Shown here: one piece after another, positions 27,800 to 29,300 of the stretch
Numbering within the stretch: position 1 is the stretch's first letter
How the letters are laid out: each line of letters opens with the position of its first letter
Source: Anaeromyces robustus
Taxonomy: Eukaryota
Assembly (NCBI GenBank): GCA_002104895.1
Contig: MCFG01000398.1
Coordinates: 1 to 60,931 of the forward strand
DNA: 60,931 nucleotides
Direction: 5' to 3'
Made by a program: the position numbers and the translations under genes
The notes under the pieces: model-generated
What the model was told of the DNA's origin: nothing
The model's input: the letters and a program-made list of their open reading frames with translations, nothing else
Database searches by the model: none

Positions 27800-29300
27800 T
27801 TGAAGTATAACAATATTTGTGATTGGAAAAGTATATCAATGGTATATTCATTTAAAATTTTAAATCTATATTTTTCGCGAATATTTCTTTGACATGATTA
27901 CTATTTATACCATTTTCATATTTATTAGTAATATAAGAATTATAAGATTTGGCAATATTATAGTATTCATAATATTATCATATTCTGAATGAGCATGCAT
28001 ATCTAAAATAACTTAATAAATAAATTGGATTGAAAATGTTTTATCTATTTCATTAGTAAAATTATCAGTTTCAGTTTCAGTTTCAGAGTCTATACCCATT
28101 TTTTTATTAATAATGGAAGAAAAAAATGATTTTTTTGGTAAATAAATGGTAATCAAAAAAATAAAAAAACAAAAAAAAAAAAAAAAAAACAATACAACAG
28201 AAAAAAATCCATTTATATTTTTAGAAATATTTTCGAACATATCAGAAATGTTTGTATTTATGAATATCTCCCCCTCCATTTCCTGTTCTTATATCCAATA
28301 GATTTCCTTCTATATTTATTAAGTATATTTTATTTTAATAATATTATGATACTTTCGCATTAAAACAGTTGATAAAGGTAAAAAAAATTTCAATATTTTA
28401 TTTTCTGGTTAAGAAGCAAGTAATATAACTATTGGAAGTATACTTATCTTTTCGTACTTTTAATTAATGTTTTATTACCTAAATTTTTTTCGACAAAAAA
28501 AAAAATTTTTTTTTTCACTCTGACTAAACGGTAACGAATATCACTATCACATTTATCAGTTAACATATAATAAAACAAATACTATTTATTTTTTGGTAAT
28601 AATAATTGTTAGTATTTACTTTGATTGGATTATTTTCATCTTTTTTTATAATACAATCTTTTATGTTGGTGATATAATTGATATATACTTTTCTATATAT
28701 ATAGATAAGGATAAGCATAATTAATTTGGTTTTCTCTAGCTAAAGTTTTTTTTTTTAAATAAAAATATCTTCTATCAAATCTAAGATCTACCGTATTTAT
28801 TGCTTTTTATTTTATAAACATTCAAATTTTATCATAATAAGATGATCTTCCGTCCGGTAATAATGATTTTATCATTTTGAATTGAATTGATTTAATATAT
28901 CATTCTATTTAGTCATAGAAATTACAAAATTTTGTAAATCAGCAAAGTCGTAACACTTGATAATATTTTTTTTAAACTATTTTATTGTTAAAATCTTGAA
29001 AATTTAACTTTTGAAGAATATTTACCCGATCTGAATAAGATTTATTTCTCAAGTCGTCATTATAATAAACTACATCGAATGGAATAAATATATCATTAAT
29101 AAATTAATAAATATTTACAATCAAATACAATATAATATTATAATTATTTCTACGACTTTGTCCAACAAATCTTCCACACGTAAATTTTCAGAAATGCTAA
29201 ACATTAAATATATTGATTATAATTATTAATCTATGAATTTCCATCGGTTTTAGAAGTAACATAAAATGTACTCATGAATAAATTTTCTTGTTTCATGGAA
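27800..29300 (-). pseudogene. Viral/plasmid-type mRNA capping enzyme relic: guanylyltransferase fused to cap guanine-N7 methyltransferase
   Basis: Colinear minus-strand motifs across frameshifts: FYVTSKTDG (motif I, 29266-29240), FIPFDVVYY..YSDRVNIL (IIIa, ~29090-29015), YKIK../INTVDL (V, ~28820-28785), KVRKDKYTSNSY (VI, ~28460-28425), LMRKYHNIIK (~28363-28334), NLLDIRTGNGGGDIHKY (SAM-binding, ~28305-28254) and FENISKNINGFF. Outer boundaries are approximate. Confidence 0.8.

Follow-up and report, generated by a model that had tools for sequence, protein, structure and literature searches.

A decayed, solitary copy of a probable giant-virus-type mRNA capping enzyme gene in the anaerobic gut fungus Anaeromyces robustus

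Introduction

Endogenous giant-virus-like elements, called 'fundsalphavirus', have been described in Anaeromyces robustus, Neocallimastix californiae, Piromyces finnis and other fungi (Gong, Zhang & Han 2020, Virus Evolution, PMC7017919), and according to that description six genes are common to them, covering a 'SAM' methyltransferase, D5, a D6/D11 helicase and RNA polymerase subunits. The first of these is labelled there 'SAM' or 'AdoMet_MTases', as a methyltransferase only; it is drawn adjacent to genes for D5 primase-helicase, PolB and the multi-subunit RNA polymerase, and in supplementary figure 3 of the paper, a tree with cellular and further viral sequences as well, the fungal 'SAM' sequences have Marseilleviridae and Pitho-like viruses as neighbours. 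The same source reports stop codons and frameshifts in the elements, notes retrotransposons near them, and describes a screen that used the DNA polymerase and gave four A. robustus contigs of 119,790, 107,189, 64,180 and 42,401 bp. Here we analyse another stretch of the same fungus, 60,931 nucleotides long (GenBank assembly GCA_002104895.1, contig MCFG01000398.1, positions 1 to 60,931, hereafter the window), where a first-pass annotation made from the sequence alone had proposed a pseudogene of a fused guanylyltransferase-methyltransferase, that is, of a messenger RNA (mRNA) capping enzyme. Our analysis gives a probability of about 85% that the locus holds a giant-virus-type mRNA capping enzyme gene as a solitary, dead copy shortened at its 5' end, and that this gene belongs to the family found in fundsalphavirus-type elements.

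Results

The seven motif strings quoted by the first-pass annotation were all located on the minus strand and in the order given there, spread over three reading frames: YVTSKTDG and MRKYHNIIK share one frame, PFDVVYY and NTVDL the second, and RKDKYTSN, LLDI and DIHKY the third. Stop codons stand between the motif blocks, the longest stop-free stretch on both strands of 27700-29700 being 91 aa, and RKDKYTSN and MRKYHN are separated by 71 nt, not far from the some 60 nt estimated earlier. The locus forms an island of higher GC content, 18-21% at 27900-29400 between flanks of 4-13%. Three patterns, taken as family-level consensus forms known from the literature, were searched in six frames over the whole window: K[TAS]DG, R.DK..[APST]N and [ILV][ILV]D[ILV].[CTS]G.GG(G)D each occur once, all at the locus, and in first-order Markov copies the expected numbers per window are 0.18, 0.04 and 0.0 for KxDG, RxDKxxxN and the S-adenosylmethionine (SAM) motif, respectively. 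The ordered cluster appeared in 0 of 200 such copies.

The relatives of the locus were reached through a segment that is interrupted by stops but keeps its frame. Positions 28693-29187 read through to 165 residues with five internal in-frame stops and no frame change, and a word-based protein search with this read-through (stops as X) confirmed 3 proteins among 94 candidates, all three from A. robustus, at E 2e-31 to 1e-23 and 47-55% identity. Intact relatives carry the motifs in one polypeptide (FYVAAKTDG, FDVIYYND, NDGIIITDG, VYKIKTINTVDL, VRKDKYTSNS, LMRKYHN and LLDIGTGNGGDIHKW), as the fusion proposed for the locus would have it. When the A. robustus protein P0004 (682 aa) was compared back with the window by tblastn, its residues 124-407 matched 29349-28450 (E 9e-52), residues 87-478 matched 29468-28245 (E 3e-34), and residues 538-614 and 595-674 matched 28255-27780 (E 8e-12 and 6e-12), leaving a gap at residues 478-538. 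With three relatives as queries the only significant match was at the pseudogene locus, the other notable matches being asparagine-rich low-complexity regions. The window copy is nearest to the A. robustus proteins P0003 (76% identity) and P0004 (74%), followed by P0005 (60%), and it is 41-61% identical to 15 members from other genera or sources.

The anatomy of the broken copy was worked out with a frameshift-tolerant protein-to-DNA alignment, written for this analysis, with P0004 as the reference (Table 1). P0004 residues 87-679 align to 29468-27764 with 391 of the 526 matched residues identical (74%), and the detectable pseudogene is wider on both sides than the span first proposed, 27800-29300. 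The count of lesions depends on the penalties, ranging over four settings from 32 frameshifts and 3 stops when frameshifts are cheap to 16 frameshifts and 9 stops when they are very dear; whichever setting is used, some 58 residues of P0004 are absent and about 30 codons are added. The standard run places 28 frameshift sites, and only 4 of them fall in homopolymers of at least 7 bases.

Among 152 family-invariant columns, counted from P0005 residue 302 onwards, 104 are kept by the window copy. The guanylyltransferase motifs are preserved in order and spacing, with IIIa, V and VI intact and III and IV damaged. Since the motif III Glu and the motif IV Gly are both replaced by Lys, the window copy is, as judged by its residues, a guanylyltransferase homologue and not an active guanylyltransferase. 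The RxxHNxIK block is present ahead of SAM-binding motif I (MRKYHNIIK, LLDIRTGNGGGDIHKY), a complete Rossmann-type methyltransferase core, such as the intact relatives have, is not retained, and the homology is continuous across the 71 nt that join the guanylyltransferase and methyltransferase motif sets. The earlier proposal of two domains in one polypeptide and of a pseudogene thus agrees with the intact family, against which the frameshifts, stops and lost catalytic residues can be read off directly.

Table 1. Features of the pseudogene and of its surroundings (positions in the window)
Feature	Position	Strand	Remarks
Whole detectable pseudogene	27764..29468	-	matches P0004 residues 87-679: guanylyltransferase, oligonucleotide-binding (OB) and methyltransferase parts; 5'-truncated
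Nucleotidyltransferase motif I, YVTSKTDG	29240..29263	-	KTDG at 29251-29240; catalytic-lysine codon 29249-29251 kept; aligns with family-invariant K368, D370, G371
Motif III remnant, IVFDCK	29112..29131	-	family-invariant Glu to Lys (E409K), codon 29114-29116
Motif IIIa, PFDVVYY	29062..29082	-	F418, D419 kept
Motif IV remnant, NDKIIIT	28856..28876	-	invariant Gly of DG to Lys (G484K), 28868-28870
Motif V, VYKIKS / NTVDL	28783..28818	-	frameshift near 28798 splits motif; K502, K504, N507, D510 kept
NTVDL string of motif V	28783-28797	-	exact string located
Motif VI, RKDKYTSN, end of guanylyltransferase OB part	28431..28454	-	R606, D608, K609, N613 kept
Cap methyltransferase entry motif, MRKYHNIIK	28334..28360	-	K644, Y645, H646, N647, K650 kept
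SAM-binding motif I, LLDIRTGNGGGDIHKY	28254..28301	-	Gly to Arg (G665R, 28287-28289); extra Gly codon; Trp to Tyr (W675Y, 28254-28256)
LLDI and DIHKY	28290-28301 and 28254-28268	-	strings inside SAM-binding motif I
Collapsed methyltransferase core	28100..28245	-	block with invariant E685, D734, D761 unalignable; shorter stretch with long T run instead
Methyltransferase C-terminal remnant	27764..28100	-	IYLLSYFRY..HSEYDNI..NSYITNKYENGINSNHVKEIF..FKILNEYTID..IKVIEF; tblastn and alignment
Proteasomal AAA ATPase gene	12009-12842	-	
Two tandem BAAT_C-type hydrolase genes	21024-21908, 22842-23723		intact, 294 and 293 aa, clearly paralogous
Aconitase-family gene	50964-52262	-	
EF1-gamma gene	57805-58737	-	
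Long terminal repeat (LTR) retrotransposon pol 3' end	1-1308		integrase zinc-binding, integrase core, Tf2-type SH3 and chromo domains; open to window edge

No triphosphatase domain had been recognised at the first reading, and none emerges from alignment: when the first 300 residues of three family members are aligned upstream of 29468, their scores are at the level of shuffled queries (71 against 67.9 +/- 10.6, 44 against 42.7, 42 against 43.0 and 68 against 74.5). Either the copy is cut short at its 5' end, or it has decayed there so far that it can no longer be recognised. A small GC island (21%) at 30000-30300, about 550 bases upstream of the pseudogene and with neither a long frame nor a Pfam match, could be a further eroded remnant; its alignment scores with the family N-terminus are at shuffle level.

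Introns were considered as the cause of the frame changes and rejected, for frames switch by single bases inside conserved blocks (for example, IKIKY/LINIE) and in-frame stops fall inside conserved segments.

The parent family could be collected from its intact members. A search with P0005 residues 270-880 listed 43 proteins, 33 of them close cluster representatives, which include 3 from A. robustus, 7 from Neocallimastix sp. 'constans', 8 from N. lanati, 4 from N. californiae and 1 from Piromyces finnis; full-length members are mostly of 800-950 aa and 53-73% identical to P0005. On this count the family is multi-copy in Neocallimastigomycota, the anaerobic gut fungi. An alignment of 19 members keeps K368, D370, G371, E409, F418, D419, D483, G484, K502, K504, R606, D608, K609 and the methyltransferase motif invariant, and the invariant motif sets of both guanylyltransferase and methyltransferase are found in 19 of 19; in family form the motifs read KTDG, FD(V/I)IYYND, NDGIIIT, YKIKTxNTVDL, RKDKYTSN, LMRKYHN and LLDIGTGNGGDIHKW.

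Two observations concern individual A. robustus proteins. P0003 (457 aa), by eye, has the same residues as P0004 along most of its chain and ends in ...VRKDISILPIV where P0004 has ...VRKDKYTSNSI; this tail resembles an out-of-frame reading, as can be seen from the window frame reading KISILPIVILLAS, and P0003 itself probably comes from a frameshifted copy. P0036 (487 aa) has a CBM10 domain, and its residues 8-103 are 76% identical to P0005 777-873, the C-terminal end of the family, so a fragment of the capping-enzyme family seems to have been taken into this gene model.

An exhaustive search gave 603 representatives at E <= 1e-3. From the distant hits of this search and of the one with P0005 residues 270-880 we picked 26, and 23 of these carry PF01331, PF03919, PF03291 or PF02940 (E <= 1e-3), while three carry none; 18 of the 26 have at least one capping family above the curated cut-off. 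When the family was aligned by hhalign with 14 picked relatives, the probability was 100% and E 1.7e-52 over 544 columns, which run from the last triphosphatase strands (residue 270 on) through all the guanylyltransferase motifs to the end of the methyltransferase. The membership of the window copy in capping-enzyme Pfam families is only transitive, because it is the distant relatives that match these families and hhalign that joins them to the fungal proteins. By profile comparison the fungal family is homologous to the viral trifunctional capping enzymes. Our literature search found no paper that names this fungal family a capping enzyme, and a term search of the main text of a 2026 paper on Mycodnaviridae gave no mention of anaerobic gut fungi.

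The structure model points in the same direction. In the AlphaFold model of P0005 the nucleotidyltransferase core, residues 360-470, has a predicted local distance difference test score (pLDDT) of 73-88, and in Foldseek the ranks 1-9 are all vaccinia D1 (E 8e-18 to 2e-14, 691-790 columns), followed by the PBCV-1, S. pombe and yeast guanylyltransferases and the Ecm1, RNMT and Abd1 cap methyltransferases at E about 1e-8. Taken by parts, the nucleotidyltransferase and OB fold matches 1ckm, 4pz6, 1p16, 3kyh and 3s24 (E 4e-9 to 2e-7), and the methyltransferase core matches 1ri1, RNMT and Abd1 (E about 1e-8). The N-terminal part of P0005, where the model is poor, has the short motifs FELEFRL, RIDMT and FEIDF. 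From these, from PF02940 in 5 of the 26 picked relatives and from the full-length D1 match, we infer that the N-terminal part of the family may be a triphosphatase.

As to the viral connection, an IMG/VR scan with the alignment of distant relatives found that 99 of 595 candidate stretches encode relatives, many of them on GVMAG-named contigs or on contigs 340-610 kb long; P0005 compared by tblastn with the retrieved IMG/VR loci matched 68 of 80, at best with E 1e-17. Some of the contig sizes are presumably those of marseilleviruses, cedratvirus and pithovirus. The record of P0005 itself gives a contig of 64,180 bp, the same size as one of the four A. robustus contigs given in PMC7017919.

The surroundings of the locus are those of very AT-rich nuclear DNA, with a GC content of 8-29% in 2-kb steps, and they hold a number of host genes (Table 1). 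A repeat search around the locus found low complexity only, namely an (AAAAT)n array and A/T runs, and no long terminal or inverted repeats that frame the pseudogene. With no viral neighbour and no framing repeats, the copy stands as a lone fragment between genes of the host. Words sampled from the window were present at 0.89 in one DNA sequencing run, perhaps that of the source sample, and in runs labelled or guessed as RNA at 0.06-0.16, which gives no evidence of transcription. A Rfam search of the whole window returned 0 matches.

Three further features were seen in the vicinity. Directly downstream of the pseudogene, at 26534-27188, lies the (AAAAT)n array of about 650 bases with 0-7% GC; translated on the minus strand, it gives FYFIL repeats. 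The nearest downstream neighbour is an intact open reading frame of 234 aa at 25700-26404, with a signal-peptide-like start, many cysteines and no Pfam match. The pol end of the LTR retrotransposon sits 26 kb from the pseudogene.

Discussion

It would be logical to suggest the following history of the locus. DNA of the virus or element, or else a second copy of an insertion already in place, would have landed between host genes, and its triphosphatase part would have been lost, or would never have been present, in the landed copy. Decay without selection may then have brought small indels, stop mutations, substitutions and the collapse of the methyltransferase core, and no enzyme would be made today from the window copy, a pseudogene that most likely has no function. 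In covalent guanylyltransferases capping proceeds through a lysyl-GMP (guanosine monophosphate) intermediate, and by analogy, in the intact relatives the motif I lysine would form the lysyl-GMP adduct, GMP would be passed to the diphosphate-ended RNA, and the methyltransferase would then methylate N7.

A number of our results weigh against this reading. For the window copy itself a viral origin is proposed through its family, because the locus showed no further viral gene at its side: Pfam gave no match to viral hallmark families (RNA polymerase subunits, D5, PolB, UDG, helicase) when 13000-27800 and 29470-35950 were read through in six frames. This negative is weak, as the pseudogene too escapes the method. 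Pfam is silent indeed on the locus, with only DUF5517 at E 0.17 and no relevant match among 15 stop-free pieces, nothing in two read-throughs with X at the stops, and no family of capping enzymes or methyltransferases when 27300-30200 was scanned in all six frames; the profile check that the first-pass annotation had recommended for the window thus gave nothing, and the identity came through the intact relatives instead. A PDB sequence search with the two read-throughs found unrelated chains only (E 0.17-1.7). We explain the silence of Pfam and PDB by the heavy fragmentation of the reading frame. An IMG/VR scan with the window read-through likewise confirmed no relatives.

The intact proteins are not free of such difficulties. 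In P0005, P0004 and P0003 only generic SAM-methyltransferase models pass in Pfam (PF13649, E 2e-7), PF01331, PF03291 and PF02940 have no match, and mRNA_cap_C stays below threshold in the close relatives (E 0.013, 16.6 bits against a cut-off of 26.5). The family profile matches PDB marginally (RNMT E 0.005, Ecm1 E 0.029, Ceg1 E 1.5), and P0005 alone finds there one generic methyltransferase at E 0.14. The mean pLDDT of the P0005 model is 50 and the N-terminal 310 residues are mostly below 50, so the triphosphatase assignment leans on motifs and relatives. Scans of IMG/VR and of JGI metagenomes with the fungal family alignment itself confirmed no relatives. Finally, P0005 is presumably the 'AdoMet_MTases' gene of Gong et al., going by equal contig sizes and not by sequence comparison.

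We consider it improbable that the family is an old cellular fused capping enzyme of anaerobic fungi and that the window holds its ordinary decayed paralogue with no viral history. The family is indeed spread over at least 3 genera in many copies with conserved catalytic residues, and the window copy lies among host genes without a viral neighbour, which speaks for a cellular family. Capping in fungal cells, however, is carried out by separate proteins, the Cet1 triphosphatase, the Ceg1 guanylyltransferase and the Abd1 methyltransferase. Copies of the gene are, moreover, embedded among viral hallmark genes according to PMC7017919, and in our searches the cellular enzymes were matched marginally and the giant-virus-contig proteins directly.

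A cytoplasmic linear plasmid of the yeast killer type, with an enzyme like pGKL2 ORF3, seems to us a quite improbable source of the family in place of a giant virus. Plasmids of this type are very AT-rich and encode a fused triphosphatase-guanylyltransferase-methyltransferase related to vaccinia D1, the protein which is also the best fold match of our family. Such an origin does not fit the IMG/VR relatives, which lie on GVMAG-named contigs and on contigs up to 610 kb, nor what PMC7017919 figures, namely Marseilleviridae and Pitho-like viruses as the neighbours of the fungal 'SAM' sequences in the tree, and D5, PolB and RNA polymerase genes as those of the gene itself.

Very improbable is also that the gene is intact in the organism and that the frameshifts and stops are errors of assembly or sequencing, or a matter of unusual decoding. 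The extreme AT richness of the genome favours indel errors, and 4 of the 28 inferred frameshift sites do fall in runs of 7-8 identical bases; the other 24 are outside long homopolymers, and 16 frameshifts and 9 stops persist at a very high frameshift penalty. Sequencing errors would hardly remove the 58 or so residues of the methyltransferase core, or 48 of the 152 invariant residues, including the motif III Glu, the motif IV Gly and the SAM-motif Gly. Long frames stay open elsewhere in the window, for example those of 1106 aa and 733 aa, and this together with the lesion pattern makes an assembly error unlikely. As the in-frame stops are of three kinds, TAA, TGA and TAG, no single reassignment opens the frame.

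Chance patterns in AT-rich DNA are excluded as the origin of the motifs, for although several of these are rich in K, N, I and Y, residues often encoded by such DNA, and Pfam is silent on the window, none of the 200 simulated windows had the ordered cluster, and the locus matches real proteins by tblastn (E 9e-52), with 74% identity over 526 residues.

With the locus read as a dead copy of a giant-virus-type capping enzyme gene, the relic is a further member of the class of endogenous viral DNA already described in anaerobic gut fungi, as far as that class is characterised in PMC7017919. The locus adds a solitary and heavily eroded copy to this record, and solitary fragments have been missed so far because the record was gathered by DNA polymerase screening only. 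For annotation the lesson is that Pfam scans of reading frames miss such relics in very AT-rich genomes, and that a stop-read-through fragment compared with fungal proteomes succeeds where those scans fail.

Our analysis also suggests that the element's capping enzyme, a guanylyltransferase-methyltransferase, has been entered in the literature and in databases under the plain label of a 'methyltransferase domain' protein, and with the putative triphosphatase part included, the element's capping gene would encode a complete three-function enzyme. We may even consider, as an unlikely though not negligible possibility, that the intact relatives are not fossils, and that they belong to a giant-virus-like element active now or recently, integrated or episomal, or to a domesticated viral capping machine now used by the fungi; a multi-copy family whose catalytic residues are invariant in at least three genera would fit either case. 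If so, the window relic would stem from an earlier round of insertion, and the age of the association could be estimated by pairing decayed copies with intact ones.

Comparison with known systems

ATP-dependent DNA ligases belong to the same covalent nucleotidyltransferase superfamily, PF01068 appears below threshold in some relatives (23-26 bits against a cut-off of 26.2), and LigIV is in the fold list at E about 2e-8. Ligases, unlike our family, would have no fused cap-methyltransferase and no RxDKxxxN motif followed by a methyltransferase, and in Foldseek they rank below the capping enzymes, from 20 onwards. The identity of a DNA ligase was rejected, as the ligase matches are weaker than those of capping enzymes and a methyltransferase part is present. 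The first-pass annotation would have been overturned by a better ligase match together with the lack of a methyltransferase match for 28360-27800; the ligases proved weaker, and the corresponding region of the relatives matches methyltransferase profiles.

The cellular fungal enzymes share with the family the same folds and catalytic motifs, and Foldseek finds Ceg1 (3kyh), Pce1 and Abd1 at E about 1e-8. They differ in being separate proteins, and their sequence matches to the family are marginal.

The capping enzymes on giant-virus contigs of IMG/VR have in common with the family the block LMRKYHNxIK...LLDIGxGxGGDxxKWxNFxKIxxVEP, and these relatives carry Pfam capping domains. The identity is 23-40%.

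Vaccinia D1 (PDB 4CKB, 4CKC, 4CKE) is the best structural match of the family model (E 8e-18, about 780 columns) and has triphosphatase, guanylyltransferase and methyltransferase in the same order in one chain. The sequence identity is only 12-14%, and the TM-scores are 0.18-0.19, low because the P0005 model is poor and several domains are compared. The window copy, in contrast to D1, is broken and has no first domain.

The 'SAM' gene of the fundsalphavirus elements is found in the same group of hosts, and the window copy is 60-76% identical to the A. robustus members of the capping-enzyme family. Unlike those elements as PMC7017919 describes them, the window, over its 60,931 bases, has no detectable viral neighbour, and the copy is thus a solitary fragment. 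The gene itself is labelled in that paper as a methyltransferase only, whereas the family is seen here with a guanylyltransferase and, as we infer, with a triphosphatase.

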